Assembly: GCF_963921235.1 (NCBI RefSeq)
Contig: NC_086097.1
Span: 81,160,001 to 81,224,000 of the forward strand
Direction of reading: 5' to 3'
Length of the DNA stretch: 64,000 nucleotides
From: Mobula hypostoma
Lineage: Eukaryota
Both the position numbers and the translations under genes were made by a program. Numbering within the stretch: the first letter of the stretch is position 1; every line of letters starts with the position of its first letter. Positions 22,318 to 61,205 of the stretch are shown in pieces. The notes below the pieces were generated by a model. The model did not search any database and was not told the DNA's origin. It saw only the letters and a program-made list of their open reading frames with translations.

Positions 22318-22948
22318 GAAAAATGAAGAAATAAAAATATCCTCCAAATAATTTTAAATTTTTTGGTATAATTTAATAGACACTTTCTGGTGGAGCAAAA
22401 TTCCAAATTTCAGCTTTAATTAAATAACTATGGAAGATGCAATGAATACGTTTGACCACTTTTGTTCTATAAAATAAGAAAGCCCTTTCATTTTCTCTCA
22501 ATACTCAAATTTCAACAGCAGTTTAAATCTGGCCAAGTTTCCACATAACTTTCAGACAAAGAAAACATCAAGAGGGAAGCTGAAACTAATTCTCTTTGGT
22601 ACAACTGTCTTCTCACAGAAATATAATTTGGGAAACTTTTGGATGTATAGTGGCTTCTGGTCAATTGGGCCATTGATTAATCAGGGAAGCTGCTTTTTTG
22701 GGACAATTCTGAAAGAACATGAACTATTTGAGAAAATAGTCACGGTCCCTTTCACTTACTTAGGACACTATTCTGCTTAATTTGGGCAGGAGTCTGTTGC
22801 CAAACAGTTTCTAATAAGCGTCAGATGCGTGTACTTTTGTGGCCATTAGATATTACACTGTAGTTGAAACGAACAGTTTTAAAATAGCAACACACATAAA
22901 AGTTGCTGGTGAACGCAGCAGGCCAGGCAGCATCTCTAGGAAGAGGTG

Positions 22949-22985
22949 CAGTCAACGTTTCAGGCCGAGACCCTTCGTCAGGACT
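22949..22985 (-). ncRNA. Minimal type I hammerhead ribozyme motif
   Basis: Minus strand: AGUC CUGACGA A GGG-ucucgg-CCU GAAA CG UU GACU; core intact, GUU cleavage triplet. Confidence 0.65.
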
Positions 22986-23039
22986 AACCCTTACTCATTC
23001 TTCCTTCAGTTAAATCCCTTACTCATTCTTTCTTCAGTT

Positions 23040-23076
23040 AGTCCTGACGAAGGGTCTCGGCCTGAAACGTCGACTG
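23040..23076 (+). ncRNA. Minimal type I hammerhead ribozyme motif (best-preserved copy)
   Basis: AGUC CUGACGA A GGG-ucucgg-CCU GAAA CG UC GACU: stem I AGUC/GACU, conserved CUGAnGA and GAAA boxes, palindromic ACGU stem III, GUC site (cut predicted after 23071). Confidence 0.78.
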
Positions 23077-23804
23077 TACCTCTTCCTAGAGATGCTGCTT
23101 GGCCTGTTGCGTTCACCAGCAACTTTTATGTGTGTGGCTTGAATTTCCAGCATCTGCAGAATTCCTGTTGTTTGCAGTTTTAAAATAGTGTCAGTTGTAT
23201 GCGCTTGTGTTCAAAGAACAGCGATTTTTGTCTCTGATAGCTGGCGAGAAATAAGCAGAAAGACAAATCCGATCATTTTGTTCAGTGTGGTTTCAAGCAC
23301 TGAGTTTGAAGATGCCAGAAATGGCTGAGGGTAAAAATGAAATGATTTCATTACTTCAACGAGTTAGAAACAATGAAGAATTTGAAGGTATCGACAATCA
23401 ACTTGAACGTTACAACGCAAATAAAGATTTGTAGGGGACAATCAAAATTTGCATGAAGACAGTCCATTATCTAGAGTAAGTGTCTGCACTGATTTAGTTC
23501 TTTTACAGTCACTCAAAAGAGCACATACACTGAATGAATTCCTCCATCGATTGCTATTAGGAACTAATACATAGTTTTATAATTCTATAGTAGTATTTAT
23601 AGTAATGTAATTTGTTCTGTATTTCATTTAAATGCATAACTTGTTACTCAGATAAACAGTAGCTTGTCTTTTTTATACCTTTTCTTTACCTATTTCCATG
23701 TGAAATTACAGCTAATTGGGGCAGTGGCTTTAATTGGGCCAAAATGTGCTGGCCCTGATGTGTCCCTATTAACTGGAATCCATTGTAATTAAAAACAATC
23801 TATA

Positions 23805-32177: not shown

Positions 32178-33303
32178 GTACTTCCACAGATTCCAGAACT
32201 AAGGAAATGTCCTCTTTCTTCAAAGAAAGGGATTTTTCCTCCCTCCACTATCAACATTGCCCTCACCCGCATCTCTTCCATTTCGCGCATGTCTGCCCTC
32301 ACCCAATCCACCTGGCCAGGGATAGGGTTCCTCTTGTTCTCACCTACCACCCAATAGCCTTTACATCTAGCACATAATTCTCTGTAACTTCCGCCATTTC
32401 CAACGGGATCGCATCACCAAGCACATCTTTCCCTCCCTCCACCCCCACTTTCCTTTCTTCAGGGGTCGTTCTCTACGCGACTCCCTTGTCCATTTTTCCC
32501 TCCTGGCAAGTGGAACAAATGCCACACCTGTCCCTACTCCTCCACCCCCTCCCTCACTACCATTCAGGGCCCCAAAAACAGTCTTTCCAGGTGAGATACC
32601 ACTTCACCTGTCAGTCTGTTGAGGTCATCCACTGTATCCAGTGCTCCTGATTTGGCCTCATGTATATTGGTGAGACCCGACATAGATTGGGAGACTGCAT
32701 CATCGAGCACCTATGCTCTGACTGCCAGAAAAAGCAGGATCTCCCGGAAATCACCTTTTTAAATTCTACTTCACTGTCCCATTCCAACATGCCAGTCCAT
32801 GGCCTCCTCTACTGCTGCAATGAGCCCACACTCAAGTTGGAGGTGCAACACCTTATATTCCATCTGGGTAGCCTCCAACCTGATGGCATGAACATTGATT
32901 TCGCTAACTTCCAGCTATTCCACCCACTACTTCTCCATTGCCCATTCCCCTCTCTCACCTTATCTCCTTACCTGCCAATCACTCCTCTCCCTTCCCTTCT
33001 TCCATGGCCTTCTGTCCTCTCCAACCAAATTCCCCCCTTCATCTCTTTCACCAATCAACTTTCCCACTCATTACTTCACCCCTCCCTCTCCCCAGGTTTC
33101 ACCTATCACCTACTACCTTGTGGACTTCTTCCTCTCCTCCCCACACCTTCTTTCTCTGCCTTCCCATCAGTCCTAATGAAGGGTCTCAGCCCAAAACATT
33201 GACTGTTGACTCTTTTCCATAGATGCTGCCTGGCCTGCTGAGTCCCCCAGCATTTTGTGCGTGTTGCTTGGATTTTCAGCATTTGCAGGTTTTCTCTTGT
33301 TTG
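32178..33303 (+). mobile_element. PLE, 5'-truncated (linker, GIY-YIG endonuclease, 3' UTR)
   Basis: KEMSSFFKERDF, DRVPLVLTYHP, MYIGETRHRLGDCIIEH, QHLIFHLGSLQPDGMNIDF; decayed hammerhead at 33168-33205. Confidence 0.9.
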
Positions 33304-33304
33304 A

Positions 33305-34027
33305 AATACCACAGATGTTGGAAATCCAAAGCAATACACACAAAATGCGAGAGGAACTCAGCAGGTCAGGCAGCATCTATGGAAAAGAGTAAACAGTCGA
33401 CATTTTGGGCTGAGACCTTTCATCAGGACTGGAAAGAAAGGGAGAAGACACAGAATAAAAAGGTGGGGGGTGGTGGAAGGTGGATAGCTAGAAGGTGACA
33501 GGTAAAGCCAGTTGGGTGGGAAAGGTAAAGGGCTGGAGAGGAGAGTAGTCCACAGGAGAAAGGGAAGGAGGAGAGATACCAGGGTCAGGGGGAAGTGACA
33601 GGCAATTGAGAAGAGGTAAGAGCCCAGACTGGGGAACTGAAGAGGGGAGGGGAAGGGAATGTGAAATCGATATTCGTGCCATCAGGTTGGAGGCTACCAA
33701 GATGGAATATAAGGTGTTATACCTCCACCCTGAGGGTGGGCTCATTGTGTCAGAAGAAGAGGGCATGGACTGACATGTCAGAAGAGGAATAGGAATTAAA
33801 ATGTTTGGCCACCGAGAAGTTCCACTTTTGGTGGATGGAGCGGAGGTGCTTGATGAAGAGATCTCCCCCAAATTATGATGGGTCTCACCAACGTAGAGTA
33901 GGCCACACTGGGAACACCCAGTACAATAGCAACCACAGTACATTCACAGGTGAAGTTTTGCCTCATCTGGAGAGACTGTTTGGGGTCCTGAATGGAGGTG
34001 AGGGAGGAGATGAATGGGCATGTGTTA
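33305..34027 (-). mobile_element. PLE 3' part, tail-to-tail with the previous copy
   Basis: YCTGCSQCGLLYVGETHHNLGE on -; decayed hammerhead at 33394-33431. Confidence 0.88.
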
Positions 34028-38611: not shown

Positions 38612-41340
38612 ACTTCCTCATCAGGAGACCATAGTCAGTGTGGATCAGAAATAACATCTCCTCCTCACTGACAATCAACACAGGCACACCTCAAGGATGT
38701 GTGCTTAGCCCACTGTTCCACTCTTTCTGCACTCATGAGTATGTGGATCGGCACAGCCAAACACCATCTATAAATTTGCCGATGTCACAACTGTCATTAG
38801 TAGAATCGCAGATGGTGACAAGGAGGTGTAAAGGAGTGAGATAGATCAGCTGGTTGAGTGGTGTTGCAACAACTACCTTACACCCAACATCAGCAAGGCC
38901 AAAGAAATTGATTGTGGACTTCAGATAGGGAAAGTAAGAGAACACACACAAGTCCTAATTGATGGGTCAGTGGTGGAAAGGGTGAACGGTTTCAAGTTGC
39001 TGGGTGTCAACATCTCTGAAGATCTATCCTGGGCCCAATATATTGATGCAATTACGAAGAACTGCTGTCAGCAGCTATATTTCATTAGGAGTGTGAGATT
39101 TGGTATAGCACCAAAGACTCTATCAAATTTCTACAGATGTAATATGTAGAGTATTCTAACTGGCTATACCACTGTCTGGTATAGAGGGGCCATTGCACAG
39201 GATTGGAAAAATCTGAAGAGAGTGCAAACTCAGACAGCCCCGTCTTGGGCACTAGACTCCCCAGCACTGAGGACATCTTCAAAAAGGGACTTGATGACGG
39301 TGAGGCCAATATGAGTGAGGTTGATGTTCTGGAGCATGTTGATATTAAGGGAGAGGAGGTGTTGGAGTTGTTAAAGTACATTAGGACGGATAAGTCCCCG
39401 GGGCCTGACGGAATATTCCCCAGGCTGCTCCACGAGGCGAGGGAAGAGATTACTGAGCCTCTGGCTAGGATCTTTATGTCCTTGTTGTCTATGGGAATGG
39501 TACCAGAGGATTGGAAGGAGGCGAATGTTGTCCCCTTGTTCAAAAAAGGTAGTAGGGATAGTCCGGGTAATTATCGACCAGTGAGCCTTACGTCTGTGGT
39601 GGGAAAGCTGTTGGAAAAGGATCTATAGGCATTTAGCGAATCATGGTCTGATCAGGGACAGTCAGCATGGCTTTGTGAAGGGCAGATCATGTCTAACAAG
39701 CCTGATAGAGTTCTTTGAGGAGGTGATCAGGCATATAGATGAGGGTAGTGCAGTGGATGTGATCTATATGGATTTTAGTAAGGCATTTGACAAGGTTCCA
39801 CTCAGTAGGCTTATTCAGAAAGTTAGAAGGCATGGGATCCAGGGAAGTTTGGCCAGGTGGATTCAGAATTAGCTTGCCTGCAGAAGGCAGAGGGTCGTGG
39901 TGGAGGGAGTACATTTGGATTGGAGGGTTGTGACAAATGGTGTCCCACAAGCATCGGTTCTGGGACCTCTACTTCTCATGATTTTTATTAACGACCTGGA
40001 TGTGGGCGCAGAAGGGTGGGTTGGCAAGTTTGCAGACGACACAAATGTTGGTGGTGTTGTAGATAGTGTAGAGGATTGTCGAAGATTGCAGAGAGACATT
40101 GATAGGATGCAGAAGTGGGCTGAGAAGTGGCAGATGGAGTTCAACCCGGAGAAGTGTGAGGTGGTACACTTTGGAAGGACAACTCCAAGGCAGAGTACAA
40201 ATGGCAGGATACTTGGTAGTGTGGAGGAGCAGAGGGATCTGGGGGTACATGTCCACAGATCCCTGAAAGTTGCCTCACAGGTAGATAGGGTTGTTACGAA
40301 AGCTTATGGAGTGTTAGCTTTCATAAGTAGAGGGATAGAGTTTAAGAGTCACGGGGTAATGATGCAGCTCTATAAAACTCTGGTTAGGCCACACTTGGAG
40401 TACTGTGTCCAGTTCTGGTTGCCTCAGTATAGGAAGGATGTGGAAGCATTGGAAAGGGTACAGAGGAGATTTACCATGATTTTGCCTGGTTTAGAGAGTA
40501 TGGATTATGATCAGAGATTAAGGGAGCTAGGGCTTTACTCTTTGGAGAGGAGGAGGATGAGAGGAGACATGATCGAGGTATACAAGATATTAAGAGGAAT
40601 AGATAGAGTGGACAGCCAGCGCCTCTTCCCCAGGGCACCACTGCTCAGTACATGAGGACATGGCTTTAAGGTAAGGGGTGGGAAGTTCAAGAGGGATATT
40701 AGAGGAAGGTTTTTTACTCAGAGAGTGGTTGGTGCGTGGAATGCACTGCCTGAGTCAGTGGTGGAGGCAGATACACTAGTGAAATTTCAGAGACTGCTTG
40801 ACAGGTATATGGAGGAATTTAAGGTGGGGGCTTATATGGGAGGTAGGGTTTAAGGGTCGGCACAACATTGTGGGCTGAAGGGCCTGCACTGTGCTGTCCT
40901 ATTCTATGTTCTATGTTCAAAAAGGCAGCATCCATCTTTAAGGACCCCCATCACCCACAGAATGCTGTCTTCTCATGCTACCATCAGGGAGGAGCCTGAA
41001 GACGCATATTCAATGTTTTAGGAATAGATTCTTCCCCTCCACCATCAGATTTTAAAATGGACAATGAACCACCCCACGAACCTCATTATATTTGCTCTCT
41101 CTGCACTCATTAGCACATGGAGTACAGAAGAGTACACAGCACAGGAACGAGCCCTTCAGCCCATTCTGTTCTACAAATCCAATTAAATTAGTAATCAAAT
41201 GTGTAACTAAACTAATCTCTCATTTAATCTTTAACATACATTTCTTATTGCAATTTATAGTACTTTTTATGTATTGCTCTACACTGCTGAAGCAAAATAA
41301 CAATTTTCATGCCATATGTCAGTGACATTAAACCCGACTC
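38612..41340 (+). mobile_element. Rex1/Babar-type LINE, degraded, interrupted by CR1 at 39288-40917
   Basis: ISSSLTINTGTPQGCVLSPLF, KFAD-like aaatttgccgatg and KELIVDFR-like segment; resumes at 40918 with aaaaaggcagcatccatc...aaggaccccc. Confidence 0.85.
39288..40917 (+). mobile_element. CR1 LINE, 5'-truncated, young subfamily
   Basis: KSPGPDGIFPRLL, NYRPVSLTSVVGKLLE, YMDFSKAFDKV, KFADDT, LVRPHLEYC in three broken ORFs; tail attctatgttctatgttc. Confidence 0.95.
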
Positions 41341-45349: not shown

Positions 45350-45878
45350 GATTGGTCAACCAATAGAAGGCAGAGAGTTAGGATAAATAGGTGTTTTGCT
45401 GGTTGACAGTGAGTGGTGAGTGGTGAGTGGATACTGCAGGGCTCAGTGTCCAGCCTGCAACTGTTTATAATATATTAATGATTTGGAAGAGGGGAAGAAG
45501 TGGTTAATTGAGTGGGCAAGGGTCTGGTAAATGGAGTAGGATATTGGTAAATGTGAGGTCACCATTTTGGAAGTAAAAATAAAGATCAAACTATTATTTA
45601 AATAGTGCAAGATGACAGCATGTTATTGTGCAGAGGGACTTGGGAGTACTTGTGAATGGATCACAGAAAGTTGGTTTGTAGGTACAACAGATTATCAAGA
45701 AGGCAAATGGAATGCTGGCCTTCATTGCTAGAAGAATTGAATTGAGGAGCTCAGAGGTTACGCTGCAACTGTACAGGGTACTGGTGTGGTGGCGCCTGGA
45801 GTACTGCATGTAGTTCTGTTCTCCTTACTTGAGGAAAGATGTACTGACTTCGAAGGTGCTGCAGCGGAGGTTCACCAG

Positions 45879-46107
45879 TGTGGTAAACCATGTATATATG
45901 TTGTATCTCTGTTACCTGTCTGGACACACCCCTCTGCTGACTGCCCCTGTGGCTCCTCCCACAGAGTCCTGTATAAATGTGTTCGCCTTGCCCCTCCCCC
46001 TCAGTCCGGGGGCAGACACTCACTGTGGAGGTCGTATTGTACAGCGAATAAAAGCCTTTCAGTATTTTACCAAACCTCAGTCTTTTGGAGTAATTGAAGG
46101 TGCTTCA
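45879..46107 (+). repeat. 5' LTR
   Basis: TGTGGTAAACC...GGTGCTTCA; TATAAA 45972-45977, Inr-like TCAGTC 46001-46006, AATAAA 46047-46052. Confidence 0.97.
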
Positions 46108-46108
46108 A

Positions 46109-46124
46109 TTTTATTCGCTGTACA
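46109..46124 (+). promoter_or_regulatory. Putative self-complementary primer-binding site
   Basis: TTTTATTCGCTGTACA lies one base after the LTR end and is the exact reverse complement of LTR 46038-46053; no TGG-type tRNA PBS is present. Confidence 0.75.
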
Positions 46125-46133
46125 TTTTAAAAC

Positions 46134-47093
46134 ATGGAACAGACCCTGAGACCAGAAAAATTAGACCTCAATCCACAAACACCCGAAGCTGGAAACGCTT
46201 TCGAACTCTGGCTGGCCTGCTTCGAAGCGTATCTAGAGGAGATTAAAGCGACCGACCCTGTAGCGAAGTGCAGAGTTCTACTCTCCAGGGTCAGTCCACG
46301 GGTCAATTCGCTGATCAGAGACCAACCGAACTACGACGGCGCGATGAACACACTCAAAAGACAATACCTGCGGCCGATAAACAGCATCTATGCTCAGCAT
46401 CGCTTAGCGACACGGCAACAACGGTCTGGGGAATCGAGTGCTGAGTTTGTCCGGGCCCTACAGACACTCGTGCGGGTCTGCAATTGCCAGGAGCTGACAG
46501 CGGCGCAGCATGCAGAACTCCTAGTGAGGGACGCCTTCGTCACGGGGACTAGGTCAGTGTACGTGCACCAGCGGCTGCTGGAAAAAGCCGATCTTACCCT
46601 AAGTTCGGCGATCGAGCTGGCTGATACGTTGGAGGCTGCTCTGCATAACTCCGAGGCTCTCCAGGCACGCGATCCCCCGATGGCCTCGTGGGCGCCGCAG
46701 ACCCCGCAACCTGCCGGCGAATCGACCTCGGCTGCCGCCAGTCGTGAGTCCGCGAAGTGCTACTTCTGCGGACTGGAGAAGCACCCCCGGAAACACTGCC
46801 CGGCCCGACAAGCTACCTGCTCCAGCTGCGGAAAGAAGGGCCACTTCGCCAAGGTCTGTAAGTCAAAACCGCGAGCGCGATCGAGCAGCGCCGCGTGCAA
46901 GTCGTGGGGGTCGCCATCTTCCCTGCACACTGCCACCACGTGCGAGACATGGGGGCGGCCATCTTGCCTGCCGCCATCTTCCCTGCACGCCACCACCACA
47001 TGCGAGACATGGGGGTGGCCATCTTGGTCGGCGCCACCTCCCACCGCCTACGACCAACGGGTGCTCACGGGGCACCCCACCACGCCGGACTAA
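46134..47093 (+). CDS. gag: Gag (capsid-like region + two zinc knuckles)
   Basis: 319-aa ORF with CYFCGLEKHPRKHC-PARQAT-CSSCGKKGHFAKVC. The TAA at 47091 is in frame with the protease, so it is probably a nonsense mutation in a single gag-pol ORF. Confidence 0.88.
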   Translation: MEQTLRPEKLDLNPQTPEAGNAFELWLACFEAYLEEIKATDPVAKCRVLLSRVSPRVNSLIRDQPNYDGAMNTLKRQYLRPINSIYAQHRLATRQQRSGESSAEFVRALQTLVRVCNCQELTAAQHAELLVRDAFVTGTRSVYVHQRLLEKADLTLSSAIELADTLEAALHNSEALQARDPPMASWAPQTPQPAGESTSAAASRESAKCYFCGLEKHPRKHCPARQATCSSCGKKGHFAKVCKSKPRARSSSAACKSWGSPSSLHTATTCETWGRPSCLPPSSLHATTTCETWGWPSWSAPPPTAYDQRVLTGHPTTPD

Positions 47094-50050
47094 GACAGTG
47101 ACCCCACCCTGGCTTCCGTGACCCTCGACCAAAGCGCTCCCCACCAGCTCGCAAGGTCAATGATGGACATCCTGGTAGAGGGGCACAGAACAAGCTGCCT
47201 GTTTGACACAGGCAGCACGGAGAGTTTTATCCACCCGGCCACAGTGCAGCATTGTGGACTCATGATACGGCCGGTAAGTCGGAGGGTCACCATGGCCTCC
47301 AGGTCACATACAACAGACATCCGGGGTGGTTGTGTAGCGACACTAGTGGTGCAGGGCACAGAATATCGGGACTTTACGTTACTGGTCTTGCCTCAACTGT
47401 GTGCCCCTGTGCTGTTGGGGTTGGACTTCCAGAGCCACCTGAAAAGCGTGACAATGAAGTATGATGGGCCCCTCCCGCCAATTACTGTCATAAATCCCGT
47501 TTTGTAGAGATATGTCACGTACCCCGCTACTGACCACACACACACACCGATCCGCGCATCCCACCCAACATCATGCCAACTGCCACACTACCGACACCAC
47601 TTGCGGCCTCTCCACCCTCAGGATCCCTCCCCCACCGCTGTTCGCCAACCTGACCCCTGACTGTAAACCTGTGGCAACTAAAAGCAGGAGGTACAGTGCT
47701 GGGGGACAGAGCTTTCATTAAGTCGGAGGTGCAGCGGCTGCTCAGGGAGGGAGTCATTGAGGCAAGCACAAGTCCTTGGAGGGCGCAGGTGGTGGTTGTT
47801 CGGCACGGGGAGAAGAATAGGATGGTCGTGGACTATAGCCAGACCATCAATAGGTTCATGCAGCTCGACGCGTACCCTCTACCCCGCATCGCGGATATGG
47901 TCAATCAGATAGCACAGTACAAGGTGTACTCGACCATAGACCTAAAATCCGCTTACCATCAGCTCCCCATCTGCCGGGAGGACTGCCCTTACACTGCCTT
48001 CGAGGCGGACGGCAGGCTTTATCAATTCCTACGCGTCCCCTTTGGTGTCATGAATGGTGTATCTGTCTTCCAGAGGGAAATGGACTGGATGGTGGACCAG
48101 TGCCAACTGAAGACCACGTTCCCATATCTGGATAACATCACCACCTGCGGTCACGACCAGCAGGATCACAACAACCTCCAAAAATTTCTCCAAGCGGCCA
48201 AATCTTTCAACCTCACCTATAACGAGGACAAGTGTGTACTTGGGACCACCCGACTTGCTATCCTTGGGTGTGTCGTGGAGAATGGAGTCATTGGCCCTGA
48301 CCCCGACCGTATGCGCCCCTTGTTGGAACTCCCTCTTCCCAATACCCTCAGAGCCCTCAGAAGGTGCCTGGGCTTCTTTTCATATTAAGCCCAATGGGTC
48401 TCTAACTATGCAGACAAGGCCCGCCCCCTGGTCAAGTCCACCACATTCCCCCTCTCTGCCGAGGCCCACGTGGCCTTCAACCGCATAAAAGGGGACATTG
48501 CCAAAGCAGCAATGCATGCGGTGGATGAGGCCATTCCCTTCCAAGTAGAGAGTGACGCCTCCGACTTTGCGCTGGCTGCTACCCTCAACCAGGCAGGAAG
48601 ACCAGTGGCGTTCTTCTCCCGTACCCTTCAAGGCCCTGAAATTCGGCACTCTGCGGTAGAGAAAGAGGCCCAGGCCATAGTGGAAGCTATAAGGCACTGG
48701 AGGCACTATCTTGCCGGCAAAAGGTTCACCCTGCTAACTGACCAGCGCTCAGTTGCATTCATGTTTAATAATCAGCAGCGGAGCAAAATTAAAAATGATA
48801 AAATTCTGGGGTGGAGAATCAAACTCTCCACCTACAACTATGACATCATGTACAGGCCTGGGAAGCTCAACGAGCCCTCCGATGCCCTATCCCGGGGAAC
48901 ATGCGCCAGCGCGCAGATCGACCGGCTATACGCCCTACATGTAGACCTTTACCACCCGGGAGTCACCCGGCTTTTCCACTTCGTGAAAGCCCGGAACCTG
49001 CCTTACTCCCTTGAGGAGATCAGGATGATGACCAGGGACTGCCAAGTCTGCGCAGAATGCAAACCGCACTTCTACCAACCCGAAAAGGCACCACTCATCA
49101 AGGCCACCCGCCCCTTTGAGCGACTGAGTGTTGACTTTAAGGGCCCCCTTCCCTCCATCGACCGCAACGTGTACTTTCTTAACGTAATAGACGAGTACTC
49201 GCGGTTCCCCTTCCCCATCCCCTGCCCCGACACCACTACCACGTCAGTTATAAAAGCCCTGCGCAAGCTCTTCACTCTGTTCGGATACCCATGCTATATC
49301 CACAGTGACAGAGGGTCCTCGTTTATGAGTGACGAGCTGCGCCAATATCTACTGACTAGGGGAATTGCAACCAGTAGGACCACGAGCTATAATCCCCAGG
49401 GGAATGGACAGGTAGAGAAGGAGAATGGCACAGTGTGGAAAGCCACACTCTTAGCCCTCAGGTCAAAGGGACTGCCGGTCTCCAGCTGACAGGAGGTCCT
49501 TCCCGAGGCACTCCACTCCATCTGCTCCCTGTTATGCACAGCCACCAATGCCACCCCTCATGAGCGGCTCTTTTCTTTTCCCAGAAAATCGACCACTGGG
49601 ACCACCCTACCATCTTGGCTGAAATCCCCGGGGCCAGTGCTGCTCCGGAAACATGCGAGGAGCAATAAATACTCCCCGATAGTCGAGAGGGTCCACTTAC
49701 TTCATGCGAACCCCCAGTATGCCTACGTGGTTTTACCTGATGGGCGGGAGGACACGGTCTCCATCTGCGACCTGGCACCCGCAGGAGCTCCGGGCCCCTA
49801 CCCTGAGCACTCCGTGGTGACTATTGACCCCGTACCCACCAATGTATGTACCTACGAGACACCGTGCACCCCAAACCCTATACAGACACCACACAACACT
49901 CCCATACCGGGCGCGACGCACACGCACGAGGGATTATCAACGCCTAACGTGCTGGCACCTGAAGTCAGGCCGGAGCCAGCACAACCGCCGTCGCCGGTGC
50001 TACGTAGATCACAGCGACGGACTCGACCGCCTGACAGACTTAACCTGTAA
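47094..50050 (+). pseudogene. pol: Pol: aspartic protease, RT, RNase H, integrase
   Basis: LFDTGS; SPWRAQVVVV, DLKSAYHQL, PFGVMNG, YLDN; ESDASD, EKEAQAI, TDQRS; H-x4-H...CQVC, VDFKGPLP, HSDRGSSF, NGQVEKEN. Frameshifts near 47500 and 47700; in-frame stops at 48386 and 49487. Confidence 0.95.
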
Positions 50051-50102
50051 ATATACTTCTTGTAAATATTGTCAGTCACTTCACCCCGCGGGACTCTTTT
50101 TT

Positions 50103-50118
50103 AAAAAGGAGGGGTGAA
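50103..50118 (+). promoter_or_regulatory. Polypurine tract
   Basis: AAAAAGGAGGGGTGAA directly before the 3' LTR. Confidence 0.88.
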
Positions 50119-50347
50119 TGTGGTAAACCATGTATATATGTTGTAACTAGGTTACCTGTCTGGACACACACCTCTGCTGACTGCCCCTGTGGCTCCTCCC
50201 ACAGAGTCCTGTATAAAGGTGTTCGCCTTGCCCCTCCCCCTCAGTCCGGGGGCAGACACTCACTGTGGAGGTCACATTGTACAGCGAATAAAAGCCTTTC
50301 AGTATTTTACCAAACCTCAGCCTTTTGGAGTAATTGAAGGTGCTTCA
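50119..50347 (+). repeat. 3' LTR
   Basis: Gap-free match to the 5' LTR with 8 substitutions in 229 bp by my count. Confidence 0.97.
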
Positions 50348-51914
50348 ACCAGGCTGATTCCAGAGAAGAGGGGGTAGCCTATGAGGAGTGATTGAGTCAC
50401 CTGGGATAATTCTCACTGGAATTCAGAAGAGTAAGAGGGCATCTTATCAAAACATATACAATTATGAAAGTAATAGATAAGATAGAGACGGGCAAGTTAT
50501 TTCCGCTGGTAGTTGAGACAAGATTCAGGGGAGTACGAGGTTTAGGATAGAGATGAAGAGGAACTGCTTTTCTCAGAGAGTAGCGAATCTGATATTCTCT
50601 GTCCAAGGAAGCTGCAGAGGCTACCTAAATCAATATGTTAAGAGACAGGTAGATAGATTTTTGCATAGTAGGGGAATTGAGGATTAGAGGGAAAAGTCAG
50701 GTGGATGAAGCTGAGTCCATGGCTAGATCAGCCATGATCTTATTGACTAGCAGAGCAGGCTTGCTGGACCAGATGGGCTACTCCTGCTCCTAGTTCTTAT
50801 ATTCCTATGAAAATCCAGAATTAACAATGGGAGAGAGTCATAACCCAATGCAGCTTCTGAAAAAAAAGGAGTAAAACAGAGAAAACAAAACATGCATGTC
50901 ATCTGAACTGGGCCTCATGCCTAAAGTTTATAATATCCAAGAACAAGAGCTCAAACAAAATTCAAGTGTATTCACATGCCTTGCACTCACCCATTAATAC
51001 ATCTCACAAGTCTGTGCTGTGCTCCATGTTCCATGATACAACCGAAAACAACAGATTGTCTCGGAATACTGGCTGCAGTCCATAGCCTGGGGATGTCAGC
51101 TGCCACTCGACTTGTCCCTTTTGTGTGTAAGGCTTCAGCACAGTTACACAGCGGGTGTTTGGCAGCAGTAGTCCCTAGTGCACTCTGAATTACAATGCAA
51201 TCCTTTATCACAACACATTCCCCATAGAAGCTGCACTGTCAGGCAAAAACACTGCTGTCATTCACTGCCAGTCCAATAAAACTCACCTTTGTTTCCCTCA
51301 AAGTTTGAATGCATACTAGAAGGAAGCATCTGATTGTGTAATATAGCTTTCTTCTCTAGGCTGGTCTCATCTATTTTAAAACTGCCTGGCCTGTTTGTTA
51401 TCCTAATTACTGGAAATTCCGAGACTGTAAAAAATGACTTTTCTAAAGTGTAAAGTTAAAAACTGCAAAGAGAAATTAAGAAAGCTCTTTGTGGAATATC
51501 ATTCACATTTCAGGGTTATGAGCAATAAATGACGTTGCTTTTCCTTCACAACACTTAAAGGAAATTCAGAGTAAACTAAAAAACGGCCGGAATTACCAAG
51601 TTGTCTTGGCACAACATATGCAACTGCACAAAACATAAATTTTCTGGCTTTCTGTTAGTAAATTTACATAAAACAAAAATCCCTTGGTATTTCTCAAAAT
51701 TTCGGATTATATACTTCCTTTAAATACTAAAATGCTGGATTGATGCAACTCCAACAAACACTCACCGTTCAATGTTCAGCTGGAGACACTGCTGGCCAAA
51801 CAACAGAATGGGGTGGGTGCGTGAGCTGCACGAATGTTTCATGAACAACATTATCAGTAATTCTGCAGCAAGGGCTAACAGATAACATGGGATTAGAGTA
51901 GATTGGGTCGACTC

Positions 51915-55942: not shown

Positions 55943-57507
55943 GAGGAAGTACCCAGACTACATTACACAAATATTTCCAATGCTCTTTGGCATTCATAAC
56001 AAAAAATGTTTAAAGAAACAGTCTATATGATGAAGGCTCTGGTTAAAAATTCTCCCTGAGGTTAGTTGATGTTTAAACCAGTTAGACTGTAACATGTTAT
56101 TGAATGGACAGTTTTCATCCTGCTTTGTAGCTGTGACTCTGCCAAACTCGAGCTCACCATTCTGCCTCACTAAAACTACTGACCATTTACATTGTTTTTT
56201 GATGATTTTGACCATTTTTCTATTTGCTTTCAGCCCATCTATAGCTTTGTGATGAAATCTCAAAGATTGAACATCACATGAACCCTTGCTTAACAGTCTC
56301 TGCAGAACTTGGTACAGGTTATATCATTGCTACCGGCAGATACTTTTCCTCAAATGAAACATAAGGGATGACATTATTATGCTTTGTTTTGCAGACAGAG
56401 AAATGCACCCATGCAAGAAATGCTGTTTCATCCCTTGTAATAAATATTCTCAATATTCAGTGGAATTCTGTGTTCTCTTTCTATGGTATCTATGGATTTT
56501 AACAGTCTTGGGCCCTCTATAAGTCATCATTATCATGAACTGAATTTGAGCAGTTTATAGTAATTGTTACAGACTTTGCTGCTCATAAAATCTTATTTAG
56601 ACTTATTTAACTTAGATTGCAATACCTTGGAATGCATCTGTAAACAGCTTTCTGGCAGCCATCTCCACTATTCACACTTGCAGAATTTTCCTGGAAATCA
56701 TGCGTTTCGTCTAACCTGCTTCAGTGTGTGGGAACACAATTATTTCTGCTGCCGTACAGCTCCGTGAACTCAGATTCTATCCTGATCTCAGGCATTTCTC
56801 TGTTTAGCTGCCATGTTCTACTTTTGACTGCACTCGGATTCTGCCAGATGCTCCACTTCCCCAAAGACAAGCTCGTTGGTAAATCATGCCCTAACTTCCT
56901 ACTGCAACGTACACCAGAATAGTTGGAAGTTAAGAGGATTGTGTTGGACAAGTTAACAACTGTGTGAAAGTGAATAGATCATAAGGAAAATAAACTGTGA
57001 AATAGAAAATGATGGGGTGGTTTGAGAACTGACGCAGACATAATGGACCAGATGGCTACTTGGCCTCTCAAGTAAATATGGGAAACATAAAATGATATGA
57101 CTGCCATAATTATTTATGGTCAATGTTCTAAACACTAGGCATAATCTCTAAAATAATTATCAGAATCCTACTTCCTCAATATACTGCTATGTGCTAGAAA
57201 CATCTGTTACTTATGAAGCTAGGAAGAGAGAATTTAATTCAAGTAGAAAATTGAATCGAGGAGGGAAGATATCAGAACGGGGAATGAACAAGAAAATAAA
57301 GGGGAGATTTATACCTTAAATTCACAACTTTTTTGTATGACCTTGCTAGAAAGCCACAACATAGAGTTTACAATTCTAGGAAAAAATAAGTGATCCTTGC
57401 CTGAAATAAATGGGCATAAGTGACTGCTCGATCATGAAAGCTCACCTTAAGCTCAGAGCTCTAATGGCTGGATGCCAATCATATCAGTTGGATAAGAAAC
57501 ATAACAT

Positions 57508-57665
57508 AAAAGCAGAAAATGCTGCAGAGTCTCAGCAAACTGAGCACCATCTATTAAAGAGTACCAAAGTTAACACATCAAGTTGAAGACCATTTTATTC
57601 CCCACAGGTGCTGTTGATCTGCGGAGCATTTCAGCATTTTCTGTTTTTATTTCACATTTCCACCA
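57508..57665. repeat. Old fold-back PLE-terminal-repeat derivative
   Basis: Inverted arms aaagcagaaaatgctg ... cagcattttctgtttt. Confidence 0.55.
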
Positions 57666-59894: not shown

Positions 59895-61205
59895 AGCATC
59901 CAGGCAAGCCCATTGTTTCTACCTACTCATGTCTGCCTACCTTATCTTTATATTGTCTCCCTTGGTTCAGCCCCTTCCTACCTACATCTGTAGTTCTTCA
60001 CACATTCATCGATTCATCAACTTTGCTGCCAACATCCACCTTGCCCTCAAATTGACTTGGCCATCTCTGAAACCATTCTTTGTGATCTTGATCTCTCCAT
60101 CTCTGGAAACAAACTACCTACTGATTCATTTTATAAACCTACTGACTCTCACAGCTACATTGACTCTGCCTGCTCCCACCCTGTCACTTGTAAAAATGCT
60201 ACTTCCCTTTTCTCAAATTCTTTGTCTCTACTACATATGACAAAAAGGAAATTGCCTTTTAAACTCACGAGAGAGCATAGGCTATCAACTTTTTGCTGTT
60301 GTGTTTCTGTAGCAGGCAATTTCCTTTTTACGAGGTCGAGTTGCTCGCTCGACGCTCAACCCTGCACAGATAGAAAGCATGCCTGGGGAGCCGGCTGGGT
60401 TTGAACTCAGGAAGCTTTGCTCTGAGGTCTGGCACTGATGCCACTACACCACCAGACAGCCACATGTGTTCTCAGGATGAAACTTTCCCATTTCAGGGCA
60501 CTGAGATATACTCCTTCTTCAAGAAACAGGGTTTCCCTTCCACCACCATTGATGCAGCTCTCACTCACATCTCCTCCATTTTCCGCACATCCGTCTTCAC
60601 CCCATTCTCCTGTCACTAAAACAGGGGTAGCATTCCCTTCATCCTTAACCTATCACCTCATCAGCATCTACAACTAGCATGTTATCCTCAATAACTTCCG
60701 CCATCTACCACAGGATCCTACCACCAAGCACATCTTTCCCTACTCCACCCCCACTCTTCACTTCCCATTGGGATCACTCTCCATGTGACTCCTTGTCCAC
60801 TCAACCCTTTCCACTGATCAGCGGGAAAAGTGCTACACCCGCCCCCAAACTTCTTCCCACACATCTATTGAGAGCCCCAAACAGTCCTTCCAGGTGAGGT
60901 GACACCTTAATTCCAAGTCTATCAGGGTCATCTACTGTATCTGGTGCTCCCAGTCAGTACTCTACCTCAGTGAGAAGACCTGGCGTAGACTGGCGGACCA
61001 CTTTGTTGAGTACCTTCACTCCATCCACCAGGAAAGGCAGGATTTCCCACTAGCCACCTATCTCAATTCAACTTCCCACTCCAGCACGTCAGTACATGGC
61101 TTTCTATACTCCCATGATGACGCCACGTTCAGCTTGGAAGAGCAACACCTTATATTTCCTCTGCGTAGCCTCCCACCTGATGGCATGAACATCGATTTTC
61201 AAACT
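59895..61205 (+). mobile_element. PLE, internally deleted (RT pieces, linker, GIY-YIG), interrupted by a SINE
   Basis: PGKPIVS, LSPLVQPLPTYI, FYKPTDSHSYID...SHPVTCKNA, SFFKKQGFP, EEQHLIFPLRSLPPDGMNIDF. Confidence 0.88.
60240..60459 (-). mobile_element. tRNA-derived SINE with RTE-like core, third tail type
   Basis: On -: TGGTGTAGTGG, GTTCAAACCC, gggttgagcgtcgagcgagcaactcgacctcgtaaaaa; imperfect TSD ctacatatg / ccacatgtg. Confidence 0.85.

Follow-up and report, generated by a model that had tools for sequence, protein, structure and literature searches.

How does a Gypsy retrotransposon with no TGG-starting primer site initiate reverse transcription? This question is raised by an LTR element on the forward strand of a 64,000-nucleotide stretch of the Mobula hypostoma genome (contig NC_086097.1, positions 81,160,001 to 81,224,000), which is referred to here as the window and supplies the coordinates given below. 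A first-pass annotation proposed that the element primes DNA synthesis with its own RNA. To our knowledge, self-priming has been demonstrated only for Tf1 of fission yeast, and it is predicted for the chromovirus kin of Tf1 and for a few plant Copia elements. Published work describes the mechanism for the Tf1/sushi group, predicts it for Tcn1 and TAR Copia elements (PMC6317226), and reports that Skipper elements carry a different, unexplained non-tRNA site (PMC5006619).

Anatomy of the element

The element occupies positions 45879-50347 (4469 nt). It is flanked by the 5-bp target duplication ACCAG (45874-45878 and 50348-50352), and self-comparison of the window defines two 229-nt LTRs with TG...CA termini (45879-46107 and 50119-50347) that differ at eight positions (96.5% identity). 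Gag (46134-47090), whose ATG lies 10 nt past the candidate primer site, carries two zinc knuckles. It is followed by an aspartic protease (47094-47504), a reverse transcriptase (RT) with YLDN at the YxDD position (47654-48385), a segment encoding RNase H and the integrase core (48389-49486), and a C-terminal integrase part that has no Pfam match (49490-50047). A polypurine tract plus AA (50103-50118) precedes the 3' LTR. The LTRs, the target duplication and the Gypsy order in which Pfam recognizes protease, RT, RNase H and integrase place the element in Ty3/Gypsy, and its best solved relative is the Ty3 RT. This copy, a decayed member of an abundant Gypsy family, is interrupted by in-frame stops behind Gag, behind RT and behind the integrase core, and by a frame change between protease and RT.

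The linker between Gag and protease contains a 60-nt tandem duplication (46912-47042), and family copies differ in length there. The stretch 47274-49584 is precisely skipped, with GT..AG boundaries, in one contig of one probable RNA run in which the short side spans only 26 nt. Its donor is textbook (CCG/GTAAGT) and its acceptor consists of a pyrimidine tract and CAG. The GT is kept in 18 and the AG in 17 of 20 family copies, and the acceptor is unconserved in most distant relatives. This skip may hint, weakly, at a copia-like spliced Gag RNA. The element is nested within an apparent decayed LINE (about 45500-45878 and 50348-50500), which we take to be CR1/L2-like, and another LINE RT fragment lies at 39873-40655.

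A self-complementary site downstream of the 5' LTR

Positions 46109-46124 are the exact reverse complement of an LTR segment at 46038-46053, referred to here as the arm, and also of its copy in the 3' LTR (50278-50293). This 16-nt match, first pointed out in the earlier annotation, cannot be lengthened at either side. Chance complementarity is excluded by 5000 dinucleotide shuffles of the LTR, in which the longest complement of the 25 nt past the LTR is at most 11 nt. The same annotation was right that no TGG follows the 5' LTR, and no tRNA gene was found in the window. Its one-base spacer, A46108, is less certain. The site does begin one base past the LTR, but the spacer may comprise two bases (46108-46109), like the AA before the 3' LTR.

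The 64-kb window holds ten perfect inverted repeats of at least 12 nt with arms within 230 nt, and five of these, besides the present one, reach at least 16 nt. Because repeats of such length occur elsewhere, the case for this site rests on its position and conservation. Nested inverted repeats at 22890-23135, 33182-33417, 57496-57660 and 60242-60329 are probably inverted pairs of short interspersed repeats or MITE-like elements.

Conservation of the pairing across a clade

An RT search recovered 1173 proteins at an E value of 1e-30 or better, and named hosts among the 120 matches listed are rays, catsharks, an electric ray, a whipworm, corals, an anemone and a damselfly. DNA of relatives was taken from metagenome loci (the best 80 of 336 confirmed), eight genome-bin contigs and one viral contig; viral contigs supplied one distant element only. 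Some clade members (L110-L117) are found in contigs filed under bacterial genome bins, where they are probably host contamination. From 88 loci examined, 37 with a gag start and at least 120 nt upstream were kept, and the other 51 were dropped. Together with the window these loci make up 38 rows in 19 LTR families, and pairing was located by searching each row, without anchoring, for its best inverted match.

The register of this pairing is constant. The downstream arm begins about one base past the terminal CA, and the upstream arm lies 35-68 nt before it. In 27 of the 38 rows, which include at least one member of 17 families, the site scores higher against its own LTR than against every LTR of another family. 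The two remaining families pair in register with scores of 10-11, and most of the 11 rows that do not exceed the cross-family null are decayed copies. When the best member of each family is compared, 184 of 190 pairs at positions 4-13 are Watson-Crick (permuted mean 109.6, maximum 143 in 20000), a count that is inflated by the choice of best members and by taking the register from the best match, and that is judged against a permutation that ignores kinship; the cross-family control is therefore the fairer one. Two of the 19 families are sisters, and many loci come from few source data sets. All four pair types occur at positions 8 and 12. Pairing is retained at position 14 in 16, at position 15 in 13 and at position 16 in 9 of the 19 families, and falls to background at position 17. 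The predicted helix is about 14-16 bp long and keeps a fixed register in every family examined.

A basal element (L113), with 46% RT identity, provides a 20th case with a perfect 15-nt self-complement of different letters. TGG is absent from the LTR end in all 38 rows. A Mag-A-like outgroup element (L009) shows the reverse arrangement, having a TGG site and no self-complement of at least 5 nt. Covariation between the site and the LTR segment, which had been proposed as a check on the original idea, is borne out, as pairing is kept while the letters change in 19 families and in L113. On this comparison of sequences, the self-complementary site is the mark of a clade and not of one copy.

The arm has additional conserved features. 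A G is found at arm position 10 in 18 families and an A at position 11 in 16 of the 19 (A46043-G46044 in the window), often in a TCAGT- or TTAGT-like setting. The TATAAA hexamer (45972-45977) and the initiator-like TCAGTC 31 nt after it (46001-46006) are present as first described, and had been used to predict a start near 46003 with the primer about 35 nt inside the RNA. This prediction is not supported as a clade trait. TATAAA is found upstream of the arm in the window's family only, three other families have weak TATAT or TATAA words at scattered distances, and it is the AG at positions 11/10 that is conserved instead, a pattern in keeping with a start inside the arm, as in Tf1. In two families (L026 and L047) pairing begins at site position 2 instead of 1, and most loci have AA just before the 3' LTR. 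For these reasons the end of the primer may lie one base short of where it was originally drawn.

Copies of the family in the host genome

The 3.48-Gb host genome contains 1152 candidates for the LTR-leader query, 40 of which were scored at 97-100% identity, and 3505 candidates for the Gag query; neither figure is a copy number. Of 45 distinct family copies, 28 preserve an intact helix; 11 of these are Watson-Crick throughout and 17 have G-U as the outermost pair. The others show scattered decay. Target duplications provide an independent definition of the LTR ends at 24 of the 28 loci with two LTRs. At the outermost site base (46124 in the window), the family carries A or G. In 20 of the 45 copies this base is other than A, whereas its LTR partner is invariant, a pattern consistent with a copied primer no longer than 15 nt. 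Protein searches of the host genome gave only the window's family, and no diverged sister family, among the loci examined.

One family copy (L002, 1501-3213), flanked by a target duplication of 5 bp, is rearranged. It is laid out as an LTR, gag and part of the protease gene, an inverted LTR with primer site, a 106-nt repeat, and an LTR that runs from the second base of the arm to its end. The junctions use a 7-nt word common to the arm and the protease gene. This single rearranged copy is possibly the product of a template switch or an assembly artefact.

A candidate self-priming mechanism

Self-priming is the best reading of the conserved pairing, because a host tRNA cannot track the LTR letters of each family and because the site sits where a primer must be. 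From these sequences and the analogy with Tf1, we estimate a probability of about 0.8 that members of this clade prime minus-strand DNA synthesis with their own RNA. In Tf1, the RNA's initial 11 bases pair with the primer-binding site and RNase H cleaves between bases 11 and 12 (PMC7175516, PMC4600332). By analogy, the genomic RNA of the window element would start in or just before the arm, at about 46039-46043, and its first 10-15 nt would fold onto the primer site. The RNase H of the element would then cut at the junction of two helices, after A46052 or A46053, and RT would extend the new 3' end across the spacer into U5. Catalytic motifs of RNase H are present in 68-71 of 71 long homologs. 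The 5' end of a short primer would stop plus-strand synthesis, and the arm would be recopied into the primer site in each cycle. Arm and site could therefore stay matched while drifting.

If these elements do prime themselves, a short primer derived from the 5' end of the RNA is the version that we favour to some degree, since 11 nt separate the conserved AG from the arm's end, a distance equal to the length of the 11-nt Tf1 primer. Positions 12-15 also covary upstream of this AG; to account for this, the RNA would have to begin a few bases further upstream, or the 3' copy would have to take part in the pairing. Two other versions, an internal primer made from an upstream start and a primer cut from the 3' copy or from a second RNA, have a small and equal share of the likelihood. 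A splice acceptor, which by sequence looks like an initiator, was considered as another identity for the AG at arm position 11.

Probable masking of a poly(A) signal

In 19 of 19 families, give or take decay, an AATAAA-like hexamer forms the end of the arm (AATAAA, ATTAAA, GTTAAA, TTTAAA and decayed forms), and (A/G)CCT follows the arm in relatives. Non-canonical hexamers such as GTTAAA and TTTAAA are assumed to act as poly(A) signals. In the window the hexamer is AATAAA (46047-46052), with a predicted probability of being unpaired of 0.01 at the 5' end and 0.66 at the 3' LTR. For the last six arm bases, the predicted unpaired probability is 0.08 with the primer site and 0.51 without it.

A second helix, which like the hexamer went unremarked in the first-pass annotation, is predicted immediately downstream. 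Positions 46054-46103 fold as a long R/U5 hairpin that begins at the first base past the arm and stacks on the 16-bp helix to form one long stem (z -3.4; 1 of 200 shuffles is as good), and many relatives have an (A/G)CCT...AGG counterpart. Pairing of the four bases that directly follow the arm exceeds that in shuffled U5 sequences (mean 0.56 versus 0.28, null maximum 0.43). This second hairpin is weak or absent in seven of the 19 families, where pairing is 0.28 or less.

These folding models suggest that the primer helix likely has an added role beside priming, which is to hide the poly(A) signal at the 5' LTR. Masking would be limited to this end because the helix partner is absent after the 3' LTR. 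HIV-1 offers a parallel, as AAUAAA at its 5' end is likewise masked by an RNA structure, the polyA hairpin (PMC2645353). However, the HIV-1 hairpin resides in R and is found at both ends, whereas in the present elements the primer site acts as the partner strand and is at the 5' end only.

Alternative explanations

The helix might have no function beyond masking the poly(A) signal at the 5' end, in which case priming would depend on another host RNA or on a protein. The near-universal hexamer at the end of the arm, the prediction of masking for the 5' end alone and the precedent of HIV-1 (PMC2645353) are what such a role would leave behind. However, masking alone leaves unexplained why the partner is always one base past the LTR end, the exact place of a primer, and why TGG has been lost. 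A host primer, moreover, would not track the LTR letters of each family, and we regard this explanation as improbable. More improbable still is priming by a half or fragment of a tRNA, with the LTR complementarity being coincidental or captured in the past. Half-tRNA priming does occur in Copia lineages (PMC6317226), but the middle of the site varies among 20 families and tracks the LTR, the CCA-complementary TGG is absent, and no Rfam family matches the region of LTR and primer site at a meaningful score. A search for host tRNAs scored 63 out of 248166 candidates, with 60 matches listed among them. The other perfect inverted repeats of at least 16 nt in the window might suggest chance or a duplication peculiar to this copy, but that reading is refuted by the presence of the pairing in 45 family copies and, with other letters, in 19 other families.

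The remaining alternatives retain self-priming and differ in where the primer comes from. An RNA that starts near 46003 would yield a 51-nt 5' fragment of which the last 16 nt alone are paired. An internal primer of this kind is possible for the window's family, because its TATA and initiator motifs are canonically spaced and because Tf2 uses alternative start sites (PMC5341516). Both motifs are retained in most of the 45 family copies, but these copies are about 97% alike, and retention therefore says little. Pairing that continues 5' of the conserved AG also suits an internal start. Against it are the confinement of TATAAA to one of 19 families, the polymorphism of site position 16 opposite an invariant LTR partner, and the likelihood that a long unmodified primer would offer plus-strand synthesis no stop at the helix end. 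We consider an internal primer unlikely overall. Ranked behind it, and also unlikely, is a primer or an invading acceptor supplied by the arm copy in the 3' LTR (50278-50293), with the two RNA ends joined. That copy is as complementary to the site as the 5' arm is, and for an RNA that begins at the AG, the additional pairing at positions 12-16 would be a toehold unique to the 3' copy. It would account for both the conserved AG at 11/10 and the covariation at 12-15. However, pairing over 4 kb must beat a local 55-nt hairpin, and the poly(A) tail must be removed.

Phylogenetic placement

In RT-RNase H trees of 44 and 18 rows, the elements form one clade (support 100/100) on a long stem, apart from the other sampled Gypsy families. 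The first-pass annotation had put the element outside the Tf1/sushi group, and here the tree gives no proof, since union with the one sushi-like row (L144) is tolerated at p-AU 0.15, although the two are not grouped in the free tree and the comparison involves a single chromovirus-like row. Two other rows (L155 and L156) had carried a sushi-like label that the tree contradicts, which leaves that single row. Union with the Mag-A-like rows L009 and L142 is likewise not rejected (p-AU 0.42), is without support in the tree, and is judged on a tree that holds no named references.

Protein characters are more informative in favouring one side. Pfam detects no chromodomain in the window element, as had been claimed, and neither a chromodomain nor a Tf2-type SH3 domain follows integrase in the window or in five full-length homologs; SH3_Tf2-1 is found downstream of sushi-like L144. 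Two zinc knuckles, which are typical of Mag, are present in 68 of 71 long homologs. RT has a one-residue insertion after the first catalytic-region D[YF], as do Mag, Jule, Gulliver and Fugitive in a comparison made by eye with supplement 3 of PMC2871265. Four residues precede the N in Mag (DYKVTLN) and three in Sushi, Maggy, CsRn1 and SURL (PMC2871265). By their sequences, then, these characters favour Mag over the chromoviruses. The Mag-like look noted at the outset is upheld by the knuckles and the RT insertion, but membership in Mag is not given by the tree, and we file the clade neither as Tf1/sushi nor as Mag.

The RT also carries YxDN (YLDD in Ty3) in 19 of 20 family copies and in 102 of the 120 homologs listed. 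Rows with YxDD are mostly near the base of the clade and scattered, and the change to YxDN may therefore have recurred. In a protein-cluster atlas, Gag falls into generic Gag clusters. Saci-2 was set aside as a name for the clade on account of its CCCH Gag motif (PMC2582038), and the motifs of the clade were not found in the searched supplements of PMC6238403, PMC2871265 and PMC2774666.

Relationship to known systems

The closest functional counterparts are Tf1 and Tf2 of Schizosaccharomyces pombe, Tj1, and the Tf1/sushi chromoviruses, which also lack a tRNA site, have a site that complements an LTR segment, and keep RNase H (PMC7175516, PMC4600332 and PMC6317226). In contrast to them, the clade has no chromodomain or Tf2-type SH3, has two knuckles, a 14-16-bp helix and mostly YxDN, and has a primer that overlaps a poly(A) hexamer. 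Its RT is about 26-33% identical to those of other Gypsy families, including a sushi-like one.

Elements of the Mag lineage (Mag, Jule, Gulliver and Fugitive, of the A and B clades) resemble the clade in the RT insertion, short LTRs, 5-bp target duplication, single gag-pol frame and two knuckles. Mosquito Mag elements, however, have primer sites for tRNA-Leu, -Ser or -Arg (PMC3286476), and such sites are absent from the clade, whereas Mag-A-like L009 has TGG. The long stem of the clade is also not joined with support to the Mag-A-like rows. Self-priming in the TAR lineage of plant Copia and in Tcn1 was predicted by the same criterion, a complement of at least 10 nt that starts 0-5 nt past the LTR, but these elements belong to another superfamily or to a chromovirus clade and occur in plants and fungi (PMC6317226). 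Self-priming in these lineages implies that it arose more than once.

Implications

The literature searched, with Repbase, subscription journals and bioRxiv supplements outside its scope, holds no account of self-priming in a Mag-like or any other non-chromovirus animal Gypsy clade. The same search, again with Repbase and subscription journals outside, holds no account of a primer that overlaps a poly(A) signal. It is possible, if doubtful, that an earlier description exists somewhere. We regard the finding as a known mechanism, in variant form, in an apparently unrecognised animal clade. A bolder composite is unlikely to be right in all its parts: an undescribed clade ranging from cnidarians to sharks whose self-priming is independent of Tf1/sushi, with one helix serving as primer duplex and 5' poly(A) mask, a primer that is internal or from the 3' copy, and an RT in which the second aspartate of YxDD is naturally N.

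Hairpin priming has been argued to be ancestral (PMC3601003). A large non-chromovirus animal clade that self-primes bears on whether this mode is ancestral or has been repeatedly reinvented. Self-priming would also imply escape from silencing by tRNA fragments. The overlap of primer and poly(A) hexamer would be a compact answer to the question of how short LTRs avoid polyadenylation at the 5' end, and a leader of less than 150 nt makes these ideas testable on short RNAs. Finally, what the third catalytic aspartate contributes could be tested naturally in a recently amplified family with YxDN.
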